This document shows, piece after piece, positions 7,992 through 45,448 of a DNA stretch of 64,000 nucleotides. The position numbers and the translations under genes are program-made. Where the stretch lies: contig JBCBUC010000009.1 of the NCBI GenBank assembly GCA_039818345.1, positions 46,549 to 110,548 on the forward strand. The letters are read 5' to 3'. The notes beneath the pieces are model-generated. The model worked only from the letters and a program-made list of their open reading frames with translations, searched no databases and was not told where the DNA came from. Every line of letters starts with the position of its first letter. Position 1 is the first letter of the stretch. The stretch comes from Pseudomonadota bacterium. Its GTDB lineage: Bacteria; Pseudomonadota; Alphaproteobacteria; Caulobacterales; Parvularculaceae.

Positions 7992-9346
7992 CAAACCGTC
8001 CCCAGATAAGCTTCGTACTCTGTCAGCGGCACCATCTCAGCAAACGTATCATATTCCTGTCGTTTGCAGGCAGCGTAGACGTCATGCAGCAATGGATTGA
8101 AAACGTCCCGCATCCCATTTGACGTCGCAAACGCTTGGATGGCTCCCAACCAGGTGGTCGGCAATGTTGGTAGACCACTCGCATAGGCGTTGCCTTGCAG
8201 GGGGGCTTGCGGTTCGATTTTTTGTTCAACCCCGTCGATAAGAGCGCCCATGATTGCTGCCAGGACGAGGTAAGGGTTTGCATCCGCGCCCGCCACTCGA
8301 TGCTCAAGACGGCGGGCCTTATGATCACTGCTTGGTATACGGATCGATGCCGTTCGATTGTCATACCCCCACGATACCGTGGTCGGCGCGTGCGTTCCTT
8401 CACGCAGACGCCGATAAGAATTCGCGTGGGGAGCAAAGACGAGCATCGATGCCGGCAAAGCCTTCAATATGCCGCCGACGGCATGGCGTAAGGTATCAGA
8501 ACCATCTTCCGCGCCATTATCGAACAGATTGGCGCCAACACTATCGAGGACACTGATATGGGTATGCAGTCCGTTTCCGCACTGATCACCAAAAGGCTTC
8601 GCCATGAAGGTTGCGCCAACACCGTGCTGGCGAGCCACGTCCTTGACGATGTACTTTAAGCGTTGAGCGTCATCGGCGGCGCGCAACGCGTCGGGGCGAT
8701 GATCAAGATTGATTTCGAACTGACCACATCCACCTTCTGAAACAATGGCGCCTACCGGAATATCTGCCTTTTGACATACCGTATAGATATCGTCGAGAAT
8801 TTGATCGCTGTCTTTCAACTCATCGATCGAATACATCGCGTTAACCGATGACGACCGAAAAAGACCCGGGGCCTGCGTATGATCGCCGCCAGAAAGGTTA
8901 TAGAAGCAAAACTCCATTTCCATGGCGCAGACGGCGGTCCACCCACGATCGCTGTATCGTTTGCACACGGAAGCGAGCGCATGACGAGGGTCGGCTTCGT
9001 AAGGCGCGCCATCCGCGCGGTGCATCCACAGGGGCATGAGCTCTGATCGAGCCCGTTCATGATGCAAAACCGGCGCCTGTTCAGAAATTGGCAGCAACAC
9101 ACCATCAACATCGCCGGTTTCCAGGATCTGTCCGCTACCGATCACGTCCCTGCCCCAAATATCAAGAAAAAGGGTAGCGAGCGGAAGTTTCATCTTCCCC
9201 CTTTTGAGCGCCTCGATTTCGGATGGAGGCAGTCTTTTGCCGCGGTAGACACCGTTCAGGTCACAGACCACCGCATAGAGGCTGGGAGTGCGTCCCTGCC
9301 TAGCCGTATATTCTAGACTGTCCTTATCGGCTTCCGTTTCTTGCAT
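7991..9346 (-). CDS. Glutamine synthetase-like gamma-glutamyl-amine ligase (PuuA/PauA-like), copy 1
   Basis: DLNGVYRGK, EMEF, EGGCGQFEIN, FMAKPF, GNGLHTH, WGYDNRT, EHRVAGADANPY. Confidence 0.9.
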   Translation of the reverse strand: MQETEADKDSLEYTARQGRTPSLYAVVCDLNGVYRGKRLPPSEIEALKRGKMKLPLATLFLDIWGRDVIGSGQILETGDVDGVLLPISEQAPVLHHERARSELMPLWMHRADGAPYEADPRHALASVCKRYSDRGWTAVCAMEMEFCFYNLSGGDHTQAPGLFRSSSVNAMYSIDELKDSDQILDDIYTVCQKADIPVGAIVSEGGCGQFEINLDHRPDALRAADDAQRLKYIVKDVARQHGVGATFMAKPFGDQCGNGLHTHISVLDSVGANLFDNGAEDGSDTLRHAVGGILKALPASMLVFAPHANSYRRLREGTHAPTTVSWGYDNRTASIRIPSSDHKARRLEHRVAGADANPYLVLAAIMGALIDGVEQKIEPQAPLQGNAYASGLPTLPTTWLGAIQAFATSNGMRDVFNPLLHDVYAACKRQEYDTFAEMVPLTEYEAYLGTV

Positions 9347-9378
9347 AACGCTCCATCAATCGAGGACACAGCAGACGA

Positions 9379-10869
9379 CTATGACAGCTGCAGCCAAATC
9401 GTCTTGAGCTCTGTGTACTTATCAAGCGCGTGAAGCGAACGATCGCGGCCGAACCCAGACTGCTTGAAGCCGCCGAACGGCGTGGTGATGTCGCTACCGT
9501 CCCAGCAGTTGATCCAAACATTTCCTGCACGGAGCTTGCGGCCAGCATAATGGGCGGTGTTGATGTCCCGGGTCCAAATCCCAGCCGCGAGGCCATAAAT
9601 CGAGTCATTAGCGATCTTGATGGCTTCATCGAAATCGTCAAATGCGATCGCTGAGATGACTGGACCGAAAATTTCTTCCCGGGCGATCGTCATGTCATTG
9701 GTCACACCGTCGAACAGAGTCGGCGCCACGTAAAAACCACCGGAATTGGTCAACGCCTGTTCACCACCGCTCACAAGCTGGGCACCCTCGGACTTACCCT
9801 TTTCGATGTAGCCGAGGACACGACTCATTTGCGATGCGTCAACAAGGGAGCCAAACTCCGTCTCAGGATCAAGAGGATCACCTGGCTCGAGGGTCCGCGC
9901 GATGGATGACACTTTGGCCAAGAATTCGTCTTTGATCTCACGTTGCACAAGCAGCCGGGAGCTGGCCGTGCACACTTGACCCTGGTCATAGAAGACGCCC
10001 CAAGCAGCAGCCTCAGCCGCCGCATCGAGATCTGGGCAGTCGGCCATGACGATCTGAGGGCTCTTACCGCCGCACTCCAATCCCACGCGTTTCATATTGG
10101 ATTGGGCCGCATACTCCATAATCAGTTTGCCAACAGCGGTCGAACCTGTGAACGCGATGGCGTCGACATCCATATGTTTGGCGAGCGGCGCACCGGCATC
10201 AATACCATTGCCGGTCACAACGTTGAAAACACCGTCCGGTATCCCTGCCGCTGCGGCTAACTCAGCGACCCGCAGGAGGGAGAGGCTCGTTTGCTCGGCA
10301 GGCTTCACAACGATGCTGTTACCCGCGGCCAGAGCAGGCGCAAACTTCCAAGAAGCCATCAACAGAGGAAAGTTCCAAGGAATAATCGCACCGACAACAC
10401 CGACCGGTTCTCGAACAATCATCGACACGGCATTCGACGGGGACGGACCAAGCTCGTCGTTGATCTTGTTGATCGCCTCGGCATAGTAGCGGACTGTTTC
10501 AACCGTTAACGGAATATCCGCACTTAAAGTGTTCTTGATCGGCTTACCGAGGTCCAAGGTCTCCAGCAGCGCCAATTCCTCGGCGTGAGACGCCAAAAGA
10601 TCGGCAAACCGAAGAAGCACTTGCCGGCGCTCATTTGGGCTTTGGCCCTGCCAAACCCCGCTTTCAAAAGAAGCGCGCGCTGCGGCAACGGCGTTGTCGA
10701 CATCGTCAACAGATCCTGCCGCGATCTGGGTCAACGTTGAGCCATCAATGGGCGAGATGGCGTCCATCGTTTTGCCGGATTGCGCGGGGACGAAGCGACC
10801 ATTGATGAACGACTCGCTACGGAGAGACACTTTTGCAAGCGCACCTTCGATGCTGGGGGATGCTGTCAT
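9379..10869 (-). CDS. Aldehyde dehydrogenase, PuuC/PauC-like
   Basis: IIPWNFP, KPAEQT, FTGSTAVG, LECGGKSP, GQVCTA, EEIFGP, FGGFKQSG. Start taken at ATG 10869. Confidence 0.9.
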   Translation of the reverse strand: MTASPSIEGALAKVSLRSESFINGRFVPAQSGKTMDAISPIDGSTLTQIAAGSVDDVDNAVAAARASFESGVWQGQSPNERRQVLLRFADLLASHAEELALLETLDLGKPIKNTLSADIPLTVETVRYYAEAINKINDELGPSPSNAVSMIVREPVGVVGAIIPWNFPLLMASWKFAPALAAGNSIVVKPAEQTSLSLLRVAELAAAAGIPDGVFNVVTGNGIDAGAPLAKHMDVDAIAFTGSTAVGKLIMEYAAQSNMKRVGLECGGKSPQIVMADCPDLDAAAEAAAWGVFYDQGQVCTASSRLLVQREIKDEFLAKVSSIARTLEPGDPLDPETEFGSLVDASQMSRVLGYIEKGKSEGAQLVSGGEQALTNSGGFYVAPTLFDGVTNDMTIAREEIFGPVISAIAFDDFDEAIKIANDSIYGLAAGIWTRDINTAHYAGRKLRAGNVWINCWDGSDITTPFGGFKQSGFGRDRSLHALDKYTELKTIWLQLS

Positions 10870-10986
10870 GATCTCGAACTCTCTTGAATGACCGGGGTCC
10901 GCATCGCTCATGGCAGCCCCTACGATACGCAAAGAACTAGGACGATTTATCGATGAGACACTGCTTTTTCAAGAATGATCGGCAAA

Positions 10987-10996
10987 TGTGATCACA
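10987..10996. promoter_or_regulatory. Palindromic operator candidate TGTGATCACA upstream of the ALDH-GS-GATase-oxidase operon
   Basis: Seen as aaaTGTGATCACAaat. One of 7 intergenic copies of YGTGATCACR. Confidence 0.6.
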
Positions 10997-11091
10997 AATA
11001 ACAGCACGTGGATTCGCGTTTGGAAGGTCGGAAGCACCCGTTCCACAAGGCTCAATAGCGACGATTTAGCGCCGGAGAAGAGATCATCAAT

Positions 11092-11101
11092 CGTGATCAC
11101 A
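11092..11101. promoter_or_regulatory. Operator candidate CGTGATCACA between gntR and the ALDH gene
   Basis: Seen as caatCGTGATCACAag. Confidence 0.55.
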
Positions 11102-11126
11102 AGCGCCCAACCGCGATGCGGTGGAG

Positions 11127-11864: not shown

Positions 11865-12005
11865 TATTTTTTCCAAGGATGTGATTGGCTTAGCTGTAAT
11901 GCCCGTGCTTACACTGTGGGTATCTGGGGTGCCATCACAAATTCGACAACGGTGACCAAGTCATGCATGCTCCTCTTTGCAAAGCGGGCCATAAGCAAGT
12001 AGGGT

Positions 12006-12046
12006 TGTGATCACGTTTTTGACATTGCTTCATCCCAAGCAATATC
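12006..12046 (+). promoter_or_regulatory. Operator TGTGATCACG (12006-12015) next to a sigma70-type promoter: TTGACA (12019-12024), -10-like GCAATATC (12039-12046)
   Basis: Read directly from sequence upstream of the GS-spuC operon. Promoter assignment is by consensus match only. Confidence 0.55.
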
Positions 12047-25700: not shown

Positions 25701-26246
25701 ATGGACGATTTAGGCGAACGGATCAGGAGTTTGCGCGGTGAAGCAGGGAAAAGTCAGCGCGCTTTAGCGCGCGACGCCGGCGTCTCGAACGGCACGATTT
25801 CGCTTATTGAGAGTGGCCAATCCGATCCCACCGTGGGCCAACTCAAAAAAATCCTTGGCGCCCTCGATGTGTCGATGGTCCAGTTTTTTGAAGGCGGACA
25901 CGAACCAAACGAGCAATATTTTTACTCGGCGGACGACCTCGTAGAGATCGGGTCGGGCAAAATATCCTATAAGCACGTACACGACCCAAGGAAGACACGG
26001 CAACTTCAAATCCTAAGTGAGGTCTATGAACCAGGCGCGGACACGGGGCCTTCCATGCTTCGTCACGATGGCGAAGAAGGCGGCGTGATCATTTCAGGAG
26101 AGTTAGAAGTGCAGGTCCTCGGCAAGAAACGACGTTTAAAAGCAGGTGATGCCTATCAATTCCCGAGCCACCTTCCCCACCGTTTTCGCAACACGGGCAA
26201 GTCCAAGTGCCGTCTTATCTCCGCTTGCACACCGCCGTCCTTTTAA
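25701..26246 (+). CDS. XRE-HTH + cupin regulator (PuuR/PauR-like)
   Basis: LARDAGVSNGTISLIESGQSDP HTH. C-terminal cupin (HDGEEGG, PHRFRN, SACTPPSF). Confidence 0.88.
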   Translation: MDDLGERIRSLRGEAGKSQRALARDAGVSNGTISLIESGQSDPTVGQLKKILGALDVSMVQFFEGGHEPNEQYFYSADDLVEIGSGKISYKHVHDPRKTRQLQILSEVYEPGADTGPSMLRHDGEEGGVIISGELEVQVLGKKRRLKAGDAYQFPSHLPHRFRNTGKSKCRLISACTPPSF

Positions 26247-36575: not shown

Positions 36576-36647
36576 CACTGCCTCCATGCGAGTCGTTACG
36601 ACCCGGTCACGCCCCTAATCGGCTTTTGTGAACCACAAAGAGTTAAA

Positions 36648-36657
36648 CGTGATCACA
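36648..36657. promoter_or_regulatory. Operator candidate CGTGATCACA in the divergent TBDR / hydroxylase intergenic region
   Basis: Seen as aaaCGTGATCACAatt. A spacer variant TTGTG-AAC-CACAA lies at 36626-36638. Confidence 0.6.
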
Positions 36658-36862
36658 ATTCAGTGGTGTTGGATAGAGTGTTCACGGGCATGTGTACCCA
36701 ATCGATGACCAAATGTGGCAATTTCACAACAACGATAATCCAGGATCGGCCAAAGAAAACGGCTTGAGGGCCGCTTCTGGTCAGTCATGGCTTGGCGATT
36801 GACATGATCGGTCAAGGCGGCACAGACTCCTCAGAGGCAGTTGAAAACGTAGCGGATTTGGC

Positions 36863-40517: not shown

Positions 40518-40719
40518 CGTGATCACACCGTAACCTTGACTGCTCCCTAGTAAGATGCGGCGAAGCTCTATGCATGTCATCAGAACGTTGAATTCGCTCA
40601 TTTCCGATGTATTGAGAAGCGCTCGATCACGCCCTCAATTGCTCGTTTCGTGAATTGGCAGAATGCGATCACGATTGCCGAAAAAGTGGCGTATTCTCTT
40701 GCAATTGTGATCACGATTG
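40518..40719. promoter_or_regulatory. Cluster of operator candidates: CGTGATCACA (40518), TGCGATCACG (40664, one mismatch), CAATTGTGATCACGATTG (40702-40719)
   Basis: In the divergent sulfotransferase / membrane-protein intergenic region. The last site is an 18-bp near-perfect palindrome. Confidence 0.65.
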
Positions 40720-40871
40720 ACCTAGCCTGCTAGCAATCTTGTCGGAGAGACCGAACCAACGAGCAGCGTACGTGTTGGTGATCATGAGGTCCTCGTTCAC
40801 GGGAAAGCGCATCTGAATTGCAAGTTCGATCTACACCAACCAAGCCGACCGAACTGTCCATCGAATCGGTG

Positions 40872-41708
40872 ATGGCGTTTCTTCAAAGAAATGGCTTCTT
40901 GATATTCAAATGGACCGTGTACTCCTTGTTGCTGGTCAACGTGGTGTATTATGCGCATGAGGATTGGACCGTCGCTCAACACACGCTGACCGAAGGGGCT
41001 TCAATACTCAAGATTTTATCTGCCTACGCAGCATCGCTCGATGTTTTCGCCTGGATGATGCTGATTTTCATCTATGAGGTGGAGACCTATTGGCTGGAAG
41101 ACGACTTCGACAACTCGATCGTGCTTGGCGCAATGACGATAGGGAAATTGTTGTTTGCTGCGCTCATCATCCAGACAATTTATTCGTACTCCGTGCTGGT
41201 TCTCCAGATACCAGGAACCTCTGTGATTGAAGGCGTCACCGACCTTTGCGCGCTTACAGGACAGGATCTCTCCTTCGTTCGCAACTTAAAGTATACGGAG
41301 ATCACACCGGAAACATGTGGCGCGATTGCTTATTCTGGTGATCTCTACCTCTTTTCCCAATACCCAATCGTCACTGATCTGCCTGGGTTCCGCGAGAATT
41401 CCTTCTTAGAAGTGTTCGACCTTGTCGAAGCGGTGACGTGGTTGATTATTCTCGCGCTCACCGAGCTAAGTGTCCGTCTTCAAACGAAGGGCCATTACAA
41501 AGGCGCCGTGGTGATGTGGGACTTCCGGCTGCGGGTCGTGGGCTATCTCATCTTGTTGCTCGTGAGCGTTTATTGGGGCGTCAAAGGCCATTTCGTTTAT
41601 GTCTGGGATGAGCTGCTTTGGATCACCAGTTTTATTGCACTTGAAAACAACCTGAACGAATGGCGCCAAGAGCTACGGGAGGCTGACGAGACCGCAGCGG
41701 CGGACTAG
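40872..41708 (+). CDS. Hypothetical multi-pass membrane protein
   Basis: About 6 hydrophobic segments and a large loop with two Cys. No family recognised. Start uncertain (40818 or 40872). Confidence 0.8.
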   Translation: MAFLQRNGFLIFKWTVYSLLLVNVVYYAHEDWTVAQHTLTEGASILKILSAYAASLDVFAWMMLIFIYEVETYWLEDDFDNSIVLGAMTIGKLLFAALIIQTIYSYSVLVLQIPGTSVIEGVTDLCALTGQDLSFVRNLKYTEITPETCGAIAYSGDLYLFSQYPIVTDLPGFRENSFLEVFDLVEAVTWLIILALTELSVRLQTKGHYKGAVVMWDFRLRVVGYLILLLVSVYWGVKGHFVYVWDELLWITSFIALENNLNEWRQELREADETAAAD

Positions 41709-41787: not shown

Positions 41788-43539
41788 ATGTTTATCTTCT
41801 TTGCGGTCGGCAATTTTGCTGGCCGTACGGTGAAGAATGCAGACGATTATTTCGTTGCTGGGCGCCGGGCACCGACGATATTGATCCTTGGTACCTTGGT
41901 TGCGAGCGTATTCAGCTCGACGATCTTCCTTGGCGAGGCGGGCTTTACCTATGACGGCCAAATGGGGCCGTATATGCTCTTTCCGGGGATCACGACCGCC
42001 GGGTACATCTACGGCGCGCTTCTGTTTGGGCGATATCTGAGACGCAGCCGCGCGCCAACGGTGGCGGAGTTTTTTGGCCAACGCTTTAACAGCCGGCGGG
42101 TGCAGCAGCTTTCTGGGGCGATCATCATCGGTGCATTGAGCATTTATTTGCTTGTGGTGACACAAGGCGGCGCCCTTCTGCTCTCCGACCTGACCGGCCT
42201 TTCCTACACGCAAAGCCTGGTTACCGCCTGGCTCGCCTACACGTTTTTTACGATCTATTCGGGTTCGAAAGGGGTGATCCTTACCGACACGCTGATGTTT
42301 CTCCTGTTCGCGGTGGCGACAGTGGCATTCTCCGTGGTCATCATTGGCGATTTAGGCGGTGTTTCGACAGCGATCGAGCAGATGGCGCAGATCGAGACGA
42401 AGCCTGATATCGCGTCATGGCACGGTATCGTCGGTGTTGGGACTGAATGGGCAACCCCGATCGATTACCTGATCTGGGCCATCACAATCGATATGGCCTG
42501 GAGCGTGGTCTACGCGGTGAGCCCCTGGCAGTCGAGCCGCCACCTTATGGCTCGCAATGAACATGTCGTGATCCGTGCGTCGATTTACACCGCCCTCGCC
42601 GTGATTCTCTTGCAAGCGCTGATTTACGGTGTGGGCGGCTTGATTAACCTCTACAATCCGAACATCACCCCATCAGAGACGGCCATGATCTGGGCGGCAA
42701 AAAATCTTGTTCCGGATTACCTCGGAGCGATCTTACTCGCAGGAATCATGGCCGCAGCCCTTTCCTCAGCATCAACCTTTCTCTCGCTCGTCGGATTCAG
42801 CGCGAGCAACGACATTCTTGCCCGAAAACGACCATTGAACATCCGGACAACGCGTATCTTGATGCTGATTGTTGGTGCTGTGGCGCTGATCACCAGCTTT
42901 TTCTTCCCGCCCAATATTTTCTGGCTGATGCTGTTCGTTGGCACGGTGTTCACGTCGTCATGGGGACCTGTTGCGTTCATGAGCGTGTGGAGCAAACGGA
43001 TTACCGCGGACGCTGCATTTTGGGGCATGGCCACCGGATTTCTCTTCAACGTCGTTCCGTCCGGTCTCGAATATGTCGGCATCATCGATTTGCCTCACTA
43101 TTTCAGTGCAACGATTATCGGTGTGGCAGCTAGCCTCATTACCATCGTGTTGATCTCACGTGCTGGTGAAGTGACAGTCGAGGAAACTGCGTTCAGGCTT
43201 CGCCTTCATGAAACACCGAGCGAAGATCGCGACGCGACCAAGGCGCGAACAACAATGATCGCGGCCTTTGCTTTGGTCGCCTACGGTCTGACAATGCCAT
43301 TCCTAACACTGCGATTTTACGTTATGCCCTATCAACGCGGTGCCGGAGAGCTTGCGGCCGATGGCGGGATCAATTGGCAAACAGGCGAAGCTCTTTTGGC
43401 GCTCACGTCACCGCTCATCTATGTTCCACTCGGCCTTTACGGCGCATACTTGATTTGGCGAGGCTACCACCCCCGCGCGGCGAAACCGCACGATCAGAAC
43501 CCTGGGTTCAGTGAGGAGCTCTCTGGTGAAAAGACGTAA
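41788..43539 (+). CDS. Sodium:solute symporter (SSS) family transporter
   Basis: DDYFVAGRRAP, GIMAAALSSAST, ~13-14 TM. The true N-terminus may extend to 41755. Confidence 0.92.
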   Translation: MFIFFAVGNFAGRTVKNADDYFVAGRRAPTILILGTLVASVFSSTIFLGEAGFTYDGQMGPYMLFPGITTAGYIYGALLFGRYLRRSRAPTVAEFFGQRFNSRRVQQLSGAIIIGALSIYLLVVTQGGALLLSDLTGLSYTQSLVTAWLAYTFFTIYSGSKGVILTDTLMFLLFAVATVAFSVVIIGDLGGVSTAIEQMAQIETKPDIASWHGIVGVGTEWATPIDYLIWAITIDMAWSVVYAVSPWQSSRHLMARNEHVVIRASIYTALAVILLQALIYGVGGLINLYNPNITPSETAMIWAAKNLVPDYLGAILLAGIMAAALSSASTFLSLVGFSASNDILARKRPLNIRTTRILMLIVGAVALITSFFFPPNIFWLMLFVGTVFTSSWGPVAFMSVWSKRITADAAFWGMATGFLFNVVPSGLEYVGIIDLPHYFSATIIGVAASLITIVLISRAGEVTVEETAFRLRLHETPSEDRDATKARTTMIAAFALVAYGLTMPFLTLRFYVMPYQRGAGELAADGGINWQTGEALLALTSPLIYVPLGLYGAYLIWRGYHPRAAKPHDQNPGFSEELSGEKT

Positions 43540-45448
43540 CACTGATCATTATCTTGGGATGGACCGTGCGATCACGCGCCGGGACTTTGTCCATGGGGCA
43601 AGCCTTCTAGCTAGCGGTACAATGGCGGCCAGCGCTTTCGGTGGAAGCCTGGCGCGCGACGGTGGGCCGGCCACCTATCCTCCGGCCATGACAGGCCTGC
43701 GCGGTAATCATGTTGGGTCTTTTGAAGTCGCCCACCAACTGGGCCGCGAAGGTCGCACCGATTGGAGGACCCCGACCAAACCCAGCGAAGACTATGATCT
43801 TGTGGTTGTCGGCGGCGGCCTCAGCGGGTTGTCTGCCGCCTATTTTTTCCTCCAGGACAATCCATCAGCAAGCATCCTTATTCTCGATAATCATGATGAT
43901 TTCGGCGGCCACGCGAAACGCAACGAGTTTCAGATCGGTGATCGCACTTTGATCGGGTACGGCGGAAGTCAAACTCTGCAAGAACCTTCCGGGTACAGCG
44001 GCATCGTCAAAAAGCTTTTGCGGGATCTCAGCGTTGATGTGGATCGGTTTGAAACCGCCTATGATCAAGACTTCTATAAGCGCAACGGACTAAGGGGTGG
44101 CCTGTTCTTCGGCGAGGAAAGTTGGGGCGAGAACCGAACGATACCATTCGATATCGGTTACTTCACTGACTATATTCCGGTGGCCCCGTCAGACATGACC
44201 GCCGATGAAGCAGTTAAGCTGATCCCTGTTTCAGATGAAGGGCGCACGGAGTTGCTCCGTCTTCTAAACCTCAAAGAGAACCTGCTGACGAGTGTTCGAG
44301 GCGAAGACGAACTTTGGGAATTTCTCTCAAACATCAGCTACCGTGACCTGCTGACGAAGCATTTTGGCATCGGTCATCCCGACGTGCTCCGTGTTTTCCA
44401 AGACCTCACCGGGGACGCTGGTGCCGGAATAGATTCTGTGACGGCCGCGACCGCGCTTTATTACACCGGCCTTCCTGGGTGGGAAGCTGCAGGTCTTCCC
44501 CAGGCCGAGGCGACAGAACCTTATATTCATCACTTCCCGGATGGAAATGCATCCGTCGCACGACTTTTGGTGCGGGCCATGATCCCGGGTGTTGCACCCG
44601 ACGGAACGATGGACGAACTCGTGACCACACGGTTTGACTATAGCAAACTTGATGTGGCGGACTCTGCTGTCCGTCTACGGCTTGAAAGCACCGTGGTTCA
44701 TGTGGAGCATGACGGAGATCCCGCGACATCAGAGCGCACGCTCGTCAAATACATGAAAGACGGTCAAGGCTTTCTCATCAGTGCAACGAATTGCGTTCTC
44801 GCCTGTAACCATTCAATCGTCCCCTATTTGTGCCCCAGCCTTCCCAAGTCTCAACGCGAAGCTCTGTCATTCCAGGAAAAAACACCTATCCTCTACACGA
44901 GCGTCGCCCTAAGCAATTGGCGAGCATGGAAAGAGCTCGGGATCGGCGCCGTTGTTGCTCCGAGCAGTTACTATGTGCACGCATTGCTCGATTTTCCTGT
45001 CAGCATGGGAGACTATTCATTCTCTGCGAATCCGGACGAACCGATTATCGTCCATATGGAACGTTTTCCGCATTTGTATGATCAAGACCTATCGGTACGC
45101 GAACAACACCGCCTTGGCCGCTATCAATTGTTGGGCACACCGTACGAGACGATCGAACGCAACACCAGGGCTCAACTCGCTGGCATGCTCGGAGAAGCAG
45201 GATTTGATCCTGCTAAGGATATTCAAGGGATCACTGTCAATCGCTGGGCACACGGATATGCCTATTATTACTCCCCGCTGTTTGATGAGATGTATGACGA
45301 TTGGGACGATGCACGGTACCCGCACATTCAGGCGCGGCAACCTTTTGGTCGCATAGCCTTTGCGAATGCTGATTCCGCCGCTAACGCGATGTTCGAATCA
45401 GCTGTCGAAGAAGCCCACCGAGCCGTCTCCGAACTCAAGTCTCGATAG
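43526..45448 (+). CDS. spdH: Spermidine dehydrogenase SpdH-like, Tat-exported, copy 2
   Basis: TRRDFV Tat motif, YPPAMTGLRGNHVG, HDDFGGHAKRNEF, YIHHFPDGNAS, RWAHGY. GTG 43526 with GAGGAG SD. Confidence 0.8.
   Translation: MKRRNTDHYLGMDRAITRRDFVHGASLLASGTMAASAFGGSLARDGGPATYPPAMTGLRGNHVGSFEVAHQLGREGRTDWRTPTKPSEDYDLVVVGGGLSGLSAAYFFLQDNPSASILILDNHDDFGGHAKRNEFQIGDRTLIGYGGSQTLQEPSGYSGIVKKLLRDLSVDVDRFETAYDQDFYKRNGLRGGLFFGEESWGENRTIPFDIGYFTDYIPVAPSDMTADEAVKLIPVSDEGRTELLRLLNLKENLLTSVRGEDELWEFLSNISYRDLLTKHFGIGHPDVLRVFQDLTGDAGAGIDSVTAATALYYTGLPGWEAAGLPQAEATEPYIHHFPDGNASVARLLVRAMIPGVAPDGTMDELVTTRFDYSKLDVADSAVRLRLESTVVHVEHDGDPATSERTLVKYMKDGQGFLISATNCVLACNHSIVPYLCPSLPKSQREALSFQEKTPILYTSVALSNWRAWKELGIGAVVAPSSYYVHALLDFPVSMGDYSFSANPDEPIIVHMERFPHLYDQDLSVREQHRLGRYQLLGTPYETIERNTRAQLAGMLGEAGFDPAKDIQGITVNRWAHGYAYYYSPLFDEMYDDWDDARYPHIQARQPFGRIAFANADSAANAMFESAVEEAHRAVSELKSR

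Follow-up and report, generated by a model that had tools for sequence, protein, structure and literature searches.

What is the task of a membrane protein that is encoded among genes for polyamine catabolism, in a genome in which the canonical polyamine importers seem to be missing? This question is raised by a gene in a 64,000-nucleotide stretch of the genome of a Parvularculaceae bacterium (Alphaproteobacteria; the whole stretch is called the window in the following), which encodes P0001, a protein of 278 residues. The gene is followed by genes for a sodium:solute symporter (SSS) family protein and for a SpdH-like flavoprotein. An initial annotation had noted three identically spaced [D/E]-x3-W-x7-E motifs and a Cys pair in P0001, and had envisaged a pseudo-three-fold site for a tri-amine in a new transporter, an SSS accessory subunit or a membrane partner of SpdH. 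P0001 is composed of three tandem copies of a two-helix hairpin, its family is associated with amine catabolism in two divergent clades, and a role as transporter or channel for protonated amines appears to be the most economical reading, for which we see about even chances.

A helical hairpin in three tandem repeats

The translation bears out the three motifs as well as the Cys pair. P0001 contains exactly three matches to [DE]x3Wx7E and no others, and in 200,000 shuffles of the protein's own residues, three matches were obtained by chance with a frequency of 4.5e-5. The motifs reside in helices 2, 4 and 6 (H2, H4 and H6; see Table 1 for all coordinates), and hhalign comparisons relate these helices and their partners to each other: with the loop removed, repeat 1 aligned with repeat 2 over 76 columns (Prob 89.5, E 2e-6), H2 with H4 (Prob 90.8), H4 with H6 (Prob 82.9), and H1 with H5 (Prob 89.2), as compared with Prob values of 0.1-0.6 for five odd-versus-even helix pairs that served as controls. 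In these alignments, D57/E186/D246, W61/W190/W250 and E69/E198/E258 are in register, and [DE]x3Wx7E is therefore the conserved core of an ancient repeat. The alignment contains a second repeated motif, [K/R]-x3-Y, on the odd helices. P0001 is a six-helix protein, probably of the inner membrane, made of three tandem copies of a two-helix hairpin, and the postulated pseudo-three-fold architecture is supported by the triplication in hhalign as well as by the in-register co-evolution of the motif helices that is described below.

An AlphaFold2 (AF2) model that was generated with 49 homologues (pLDDT 93.4, pTM 0.88) comprises helices at residues 2-38, 53-77, 82-111, 170-205, 212-237 and 241-277, with a small beta-hairpin domain at residues 112-169 between the third and the fourth helix. 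A second AF2 model, of a protein from the other clade with 27% identity, consists of the same elements (pLDDT 93.4, pTM 0.89). The loop formed by residues 201-214 is the only one in which Lys/Arg outnumber Asp/Glu, and on average, about 8 acidic residues are found in the Cys loop. The acidic character of the Cys loop, its invariant Cys pair and the basic loop 201-214 suggest that the Cys loop is periplasmic and disulfide-bonded, and that both termini are cytoplasmic. With this predicted topology, the D-x3-W part of each motif would be positioned near the periplasmic end of H2, H4 and H6, and the distal Glu together with the Lys/Arg of the odd helices near the cytoplasmic end.

The start codon is uncertain. 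An in-frame TTG at 40818 is an alternative to the ATG at 40872 that would add 18 residues, and the resulting product of 296 residues would have the length of P0003, a homologue from an NCBI metagenome-assembled genome (296 aa); as most homologues comprise 285-305 residues, the TTG start fits their N-terminal lengths better.

The conserved core and its co-variation

A word-indexed search retrieved 58 relatives, down to 36% identity, and an exhaustive HMMER scan extended the family to at least 398 clusters (50% identity, E<=1e-3). The best 150 representatives are nearly all about 270-300 residues long or fragments thereof, none exceeds 311 residues, and no domain fusions were found among them. 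Every source name of a family member that we read was “hypothetical protein”. The gene is carried by marine Gammaproteobacteria (Woeseiaceae, Halieaceae, Porticoccaceae, “Ca. Azophilus”) and also by some Alphaproteobacteria; culturable carriers include Parahalioglobus pacificus KCTC 23430 (locus L047) as well as Lentisalinibacter sediminis and L. orientalis (loci L065 and L086). Among 400 genomes sampled evenly across the phylum, only one had the family, which is a patchy accessory gene; one 90%-identity cluster occurred on 197 contigs, Tara samples included.

Conservation was assessed with 206 non-redundant homologues. As had been expected for functional motif residues, the three Trp residues are invariant or nearly so (W61 in 205, W190 in 206 and W250 in 204 sequences), and the same holds for D57 (198), E69 (204), D246 (205) and the two Cys residues, C126 and C149, which are invariant in alignment A2. 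The other acidic positions are more permissive: E198 is found in 176 sequences, position 258 is Glu in 163 and Asp in 33, and position 186 is Glu in 108, Asp in 27 and Asn in 71. One face of each helix is conserved, significantly so in five of the six (p<=0.01) and with p = 0.07 in helix 3. In each motif, the D and W deviate by at most 60 degrees from the center of this face, and the distal Glu is 63-103 degrees off the center in all three repeats. Neither in 93 nor in 206 sequences did a His column prove invariant or nearly so, and the loop pair is the only conserved Cys.

Co-evolution was analyzed by mean-field direct coupling analysis (DCA) with the 206 sequences (Neff 184). Nine of the top 90 couplings connect H2, H4 and H6 with each other, of which seven deviate from the repeat register by 3 residues at most (binomial p 9e-5), and these nine even-even couplings compare with three odd-odd couplings. 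Such in-register couplings fit with a parallel core that would be formed by the three motif helices. One of the strongest DCA couplings is K92-E198. Arg or Lys at position 92 occurs together with E198 in 170 of 177 sequences, and sequences without a basic residue at position 92 mostly have Gln or Ala at 198, which is the signature that a direct ion pair would leave. K13 and K221 occupy the positions equivalent to 92, and K13 and E69 are both nearly invariant; by repeat symmetry, K13-E69 and K221-E258 are probably ion pairs as well. The co-variation of E198 with R/K92 thus indicates that the distal Glu is probably not free in any of the three motifs, being engaged in an ion pair instead. The idea of six free carboxylates, which had come with the motif, therefore does not hold, and it is also at odds with the frequent Asn at position 186.

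Position 186 in turn co-varies with positions 247 and 102, and this divides the family into two clades, one with E/D186-E247-T102 (135 sequences, including the gene of the window) and one with N186-A247-A102 (65 sequences). Taken together with the predicted topology, conservation and co-variation point to a periplasm-side acidic and aromatic ring, to which D57, E/N186, D246 and D183 as well as W61, W190, W250, Y106, W235 and W245 would contribute, and to three ion pairs that are probably located near the cytoplasm.

Amine-catabolic operons and the possible role of the protein

In which metabolic context is the family found? For the clade of the window, 87 loci were compared, with neighbors being clustered and then annotated. 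A PuuB-like DAO oxidoreductase is present in 57 of these loci, often as the adjacent gene (-1 or +1) in the same orientation and less than 30 bp away, and PYROXD2/CrtI-like amine oxidases are present in 37. Other recurrent neighbors are a SnoaL-AraC regulator within three genes (27 loci), TPR-sulfotransferases (19), TonB-dependent receptors (16), members of the glutathione-dependent formaldehyde-activating enzyme (GFA) family (16, of which 13 are directly downstream), PuuC-like aldehyde dehydrogenases (Aldedh; 12), SpdH-like proteins (12), MOSC proteins (10), class-III aminotransferases (9), PuuA-like GlnS (9) and M19 dipeptidases/amidohydrolases (8). Recognized transporters, by contrast, are rare in the neighborhood, with SSF proteins in 7 loci, MFS proteins in 5 and ABC permeases in 4. 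The GFA gene lies 3' of the membrane-protein gene on the same strand, often overlapping with it, in the loci L026, L029, L031-L033, L035, L038, L046, L050, L053, L056, L062 and L080.

The second clade was examined in 84 metagenome loci, in which the dominant gene order is aminotransferase > arginase-family > PuuD-like C26 peptidase > membrane-protein gene, often with overlaps of -4 or -37 nt. Further neighbors in this clade are DAO, PuuA-like, aldehyde dehydrogenase, SpdH-like (at +1 or -1 in a few loci) and Rieske oxygenase genes, and no recognized transporter, SSS included, was found among the annotated recurrent neighbors of these 84 loci. In one case, members of both clades are encoded within 3 kb of each other (L005 and L012; 6001-6882 on the + strand and 8980-9837 on the - strand, E186/E247 and N186/A247, respectively), with one of them inside a PuuA-like > aminotransferase > DAO > gene > Aldedh > MOSC operon, and such a pair would fit two substrate specificities.

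Judged from the annotated neighbors, the shared denominator of the contexts in both clades is a cationic amine substrate, and P0001-like proteins are usually the sole membrane proteins among the recurrent neighbors of these clusters. The conserved core of P0001 moreover is a net-acidic, Trp-rich ring below an acidic loop that is predicted to be periplasmic. Amine contexts, the position as usually sole membrane protein and the acidic, Trp-rich core together make an amine transporter or channel the most economical reading, and it would probably be an importer that is driven by the membrane potential. The polyamine link of the initial annotation is supported from three sides, namely by the neighborhoods in two divergent clades, by an operator common to Puu-type genes and by a paralogue in an amine operon (see below for the latter two). 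The many operon contexts with agmatinase-family, PuuD and aminotransferase genes suggest diamines or guanidino-amines as substrates, and nothing was found that would point to a tri-amine in particular.

Mechanistically, H2, H4 and H6 could pack in parallel and in register, which would place the Asp/Glu/Asn residues as one ring and the Trp residues as another at the same level on the periplasmic side, beneath the acidic, disulfide-bonded loop, while the distal Glu of each repeat would be paired with the Lys/Arg of its partner helix on the cytoplasmic side. The acidic-aromatic ring would then bind protonated amines (putrescine, agmatine, or spermidine-type) by salt bridges and cation-pi contacts, and the amine would be moved across the membrane, with uptake by the membrane potential being the most likely direction. 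The three ion pairs might serve as a cytoplasmic gate or lock, like the salt-bridge networks of mitochondrial carriers, or they may merely be structural.

Several points weigh against such a function. The case for transport is made from guilt by association and residue chemistry, the central cavity or pore is a putative one, and the three-helix core could be tightly packed. Helix 6 is weakly hydrophobic, and the topology therefore keeps the rank of a prediction; the alignment used for co-evolution is shallow and its result noisy. The window also holds an SSS, an MFS protein and a TonB-dependent receptor that could carry out the uptake. Moreover, subsets of the N186/A247 clade occur in housekeeping contexts without amine genes (SPOR > GAF > gene; Fic > gene; gene > beta-lactamase), which may mean that the family originally had a broader role, such as the transport of an inorganic cation.

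Could the substrate of P0001, as a channel or transporter, then be a small inorganic cation or ammonium (K+, Mg2+, NH4+), with an association to amines that is secondary and due, for example, to ammonium from deamination? Acidic rings on three parallel helices would suit small cations, one of the loci lies beside an Amt gene in addition to the housekeeping contexts of part of the N186/A247 clade, and the existence of a more acidic (E186/E247) and a less acidic (N186/A247) clade looks as if charge selectivity had shifted. However, what the operons of both clades share is an organic amine substrate and not the release of ammonium (agmatinase-family, PuuD, aminotransferase, PuuA/B/C-like, SpdH-like), and it is with these amine enzymes that the gene overlaps by 4 or 37 nt. 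Three invariant Trp residues and the conserved Tyr also suit cation-pi contacts with an organic amine better than the coordination of a metal, and we regard the inorganic cation as rather improbable.

The regulator and the oxidoreductase next to the gene lead to another alternative, in which the protein would not transport anything and would be a membrane sensor, scaffold or regulatory partner of cytoplasmic amine-oxidizing enzymes or of the SnoaL-AraC regulator. This would agree with the proximity of that regulator in the 27 loci mentioned above and with the DAO-type oxidoreductase as the commonest immediate neighbor, and the conserved periplasmic loop could sense a ligand. Yet there is no cytoplasmic output domain, and no domain is fused to any of the 150 best representatives; SnoaL-domain AraC regulators normally sense their ligands directly; the other clade keeps every motif without having the SnoaL-AraC regulator; and no ligands of a redox cofactor are conserved. 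A sensor or scaffold is thus an unlikely solution.

The two genes downstream of P0001 had given rise to the other roles that were initially considered. An accessory subunit of the SSS might be expected to be encoded right next to it, and the gene directly precedes the SSS gene here (79 bp) and in four close relatives (5-115 bp). This pairing is kept only in the closest alphaproteobacterial relatives, though: only 7 of the 87 loci in the same clade have an SSS neighbor, no recurrent SSS neighbor is found in the 84 loci of the other clade, and the paralogue in the same genome has no adjacent SSS. SSS-associated small subunits are proteins of about 80-110 residues with two helices, from which P0001 differs by its 278 residues, six long helices, a 58-residue loop and its own conserved polar core. 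As a general role of the family, the accessory subunit has to be given up, and for P0001 itself we consider it very improbable.

Similarly, a membrane anchor or electron-accepting partner of a periplasmic SpdH-like spermidine dehydrogenase would be in line with the SpdH-like gene with Tat signal that is part of the same apparent operon here, with the SpdH-like genes nearby in 12 of the 87 loci, with those that are immediate neighbors (+1 or -1) in a few loci of the other clade, and with the fact that the nearest solved six-helix shapes are cytochromes b561, although at noise level (Z 8.0-8.5). Most loci lack SpdH, the helices contain no conserved His or other heme or quinone ligands, and according to PMC12564564, SpdH carries its own FAD and heme b. 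The lack of conserved His or cofactor ligands led us to discard a redox or membrane-anchor role, and as a general function the partnership with SpdH fails already because of the low number of loci; there is hardly any probability left for it.

Returning to the amine transporter or channel, the locus itself is organized as follows (Table 1). No terminator-like hairpin was found between the membrane-protein gene, the SSS gene and the SpdH-like gene, and at least the former two are probably co-transcribed. The search for RNA runs that hold the window stretch gave none, and only DNA metagenome runs were found. In the SSS protein, the SSF profile covers residues 21-417, and the C-terminal approximately 165 residues are unmatched and contain further hydrophobic segments. 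A 14-bp palindrome with the consensus A-W-Y-S-TGATCA-S-R-W-T occurs six times in the window, as compared with 0.66 expected occurrences, and all copies are intergenic. Two of them lie upstream of the membrane-protein gene, and the others precede the PuuC-like Aldedh gene, the operon of PuuA-like, aminotransferase, GNAT, PYROXD2-pair (amine oxidase) and GcvT genes, and a cassette of TonB-dependent receptor and hydroxylase genes, which suggests a single regulon. The arrangement of the three genes as well as the excess of palindromes and their position ahead of Puu-type genes make it reasonable that the membrane-protein gene is, as had been proposed, the first gene of an operon with SSS and SpdH-like genes behind an operator. 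A PuuR-like HTH-cupin protein, encoded at 25701-26246, is a candidate regulator for the palindrome.

Table 1. Coordinates of P0001, its repeated motifs, the downstream genes and the operator-like sites in the window
Feature	Position	Strand	Remarks
CDS, 278-aa membrane protein P0001	40872..41708	+	ATG start; no internal stops
D57-VFA-W61-MMLIFIY-E69, helix 2, repeat 1	41040..41078	+	followed by conserved E71-T72
E186-AVT-W190-LIILALT-E198, helix 4, repeat 2	41427..41465	+	conserved D183 just ahead
D246-ELL-W250-ITSFIAL-E258, helix 6, repeat 3	41607..41645	+	followed by conserved N260 and W264
K13-x3-Y17, odd-helix motif, repeat 1 (helix 1)	40908..40922	+	K13 in 197/198, Y17 in 195/198 sequences
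K92-x3-position 96, odd-helix motif, repeat 2 (helix 3)	41145..41159	+	position 92 R/K in 180/206; Y96 in most of the family
R221-x3-Y225, odd-helix motif, repeat 3 (helix 5)	41532..41546	+	position 221 K in 149/206
Acidic loop between helices 3 and 4, residues 112-169 (58 residues)	41205..41378	+	small beta hairpins; Cys pair C126/C149
SSS family gene, 583 aa	41788..43539	+	79 bp downstream of the membrane-protein gene
SpdH-like flavoprotein gene, twin-arginine (Tat) signal	43511..45448	+	29-nt overlap with the 3' end of the SSS gene
Operator-like palindrome AATGCGATCACGAT	40662-40675		upstream of the membrane-protein gene
Operator-like palindrome ATTGTGATCACGAT	40704-40717		upstream of the membrane-protein gene
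Other palindrome copies	10985-10998, 11090-11103, 12004-12017, 36646-36659		

Does the host require an additional amine importer? Its genome, which is 99% complete, contains several PuuA-like, PuuB-like and PYROXD2-like genes. No PotA was found above the NCBIfam cut-off (best 240 bits versus 355.6), and no APC-type permease (AA_permease_2; PuuP/PlaP/PotE-class) at E<=1e-10, so that the genome seems to lack the canonical systems for polyamine uptake. The same genome encodes a paralogue of P0001 with 46% identity (G000:C34:4599-5426, - strand, locus L090), which is the last gene of an operon of aminotransferase and Rieske/ring-hydroxylating oxygenase genes and has no SSS gene beside it. This operon is divergent from genes for a PYROXD2-like pair, GcvT and a BetI-type TetR repressor, so that the locus looks like another catabolic module for an amine or N-methyl-amine.

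Polyamines are a significant pool of marine dissolved organic nitrogen, and their uptake is ascribed almost entirely to PotD-type ABC systems (e.g. PMC8437039). The known bacterial polyamine carriers comprise PotABCD, PotFGHI, PuuP/PlaP, PotE/CadB, MdtJI, SapBCDF and Blt (PMC11998418). If the amine transport by P0001-like proteins is true, a new transporter class would join this short list, and it would supply the uptake step that polyamine catabolism has been missing in Gamma- and Alphaproteobacteria that abound in the sea (Woeseiaceae, Halieaceae, Porticoccaceae and others), which would improve the metabolic annotation of many marine genomes. The operons for polyamine and amine catabolism that harbor the family belong to common bacteria of sediments and coasts, and their loci usually lack a recognized transporter. 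Whatever its function may be, the family clearly exemplifies a membrane protein that is derived from a triplicated two-helix hairpin.

Relationship to known families and transport systems

In sequence as well as in fold, the family appears to be a new one. P0001 gave no match to Pfam and none to NCBIfam at E<=0.01, 10 distant members gave no profile match at E<=1, and when 93 members were compared with Pfam at E<=10, no family was matched by more than 3 of them. A sequence-profile search of the PDB resulted in no match at E<=10. At the structural level, the best Foldseek matches in the PDB had an E of 0.1 with a TM of 0.22 for the first model and an E of 0.085 for the second, and among 48,161 PDB chains compared by VIA-align, the best Z scores of the two models were 10.8 and 9.3, in both cases with a de novo designed helical bundle and within the range that the tool itself states to be noise for helical bundles (Z below about 13). 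Only uncharacterized relatives were matched in the AFDB clusters, the AFDB Swiss-Prot models remained below a TM of 0.3, the ESM Atlas returned only the family of P0001 itself, and literature searches brought up no description of the family. With a confident predicted structure and no solved relative, P0001 would be a good target for structure determination.

Two potential assignments were followed up and rejected. The ESM Atlas automatically labels two related clusters (113 and 73 members) as “Shikimate kinase family protein”, but none of 93 members matches the shikimate-kinase profile, and the label is probably a propagated mis-annotation. A kinship with DUF2975 was hinted at by weak Pfam matches of 2 of 93 members (best E 0.031) and by two DUF2975 AlphaFold models that weakly matched part of the model; an hhalign comparison with 22 DUF2975 proteins gave a Prob of 0.3%, and the families are thus unrelated.

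Which known systems come closest? PuuP is a protein of about 12 helices with the LeuT/APC fold, and neither in sequence nor in fold is there a relationship between PuuP/PlaP and the P0001 family with its approximately 280 residues, six helices and three repeats. No Pfam match to AA_permease or AA_permease_2 was found, as would be expected for APC polyamine permeases (PuuP, PlaP, PotE, CadB), and the models have six helices. Common to both are the genomic slot, in gamma-glutamyl-type clusters for polyamine catabolism with PuuA/B/C/D-like neighbors, and the proposed role, i.e. amine uptake for catabolism, as it is assigned to PuuP in the puu cluster of E. coli (PMC11998418). With the SMR proteins (EmrE, or the spermidine exporter MdtJI), the family would share the use of membrane-embedded carboxylates together with Trp/Tyr for organic cations, an analogy that the initial annotation had drawn, but P0001, with its 278 residues and six helices, has no sequence or Pfam (Multi_Drug_Res) similarity to them. 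SMR proteins are four-helix proteins of about 110 residues that form dimers and have a single essential Glu in helix 1. Cytochrome b561 and Dcytb are six-helix up-down bundles of a size like that of P0001, and they are the nearest solved natural shapes, aligning over 177-197 residues with the Z scores given above that fall into the VIA-align noise range. They were not matched by Foldseek and show no sequence similarity, and the four heme-ligating His residues of cytochrome b561 are absent in the P0001 family.

A further comparison is that with the mitochondrial carriers (SLC25), which consist of three two-helix repeats, possess ion pairs in salt-bridge networks and have substrate-contact residues on the even helices. 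The PX[DE]XX[KR] signature of these carriers is absent in the P0001 family, which has [K/R]-x3-Y instead, there is no Mito_carr Pfam match, and no carrier structure was among the top 50 of the 48,161 PDB chains with either model. The short matrix-type helices between the repeats are lacking, and unlike the mitochondrial carriers, the P0001 family is bacterial, has termini that are predicted to be cytoplasmic, and carries a beta loop with a disulfide that is predicted to be periplasmic. The likeness is convergent at most. Both proteins have six helices that are derived from three tandem two-helix repeats, both have conserved charges that are, or in P0001 probably are, ion-paired toward one side of the helix bundle, and both have putative substrate-contact residues at equal height on the even helices. 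In its most specific form, which we put forward tentatively and with less than even confidence, the amine-transporter reading would thus define a new structural class, in which a single-chain, pseudo-three-fold, six-helix uniporter for polyamines, diamines or guanidino-amines is driven by the membrane potential, with a periplasm-facing Asp/Trp ring as binding site and three Lys/Arg-Glu pairs as cytoplasmic gate, convergent with the architecture of the mitochondrial carriers.

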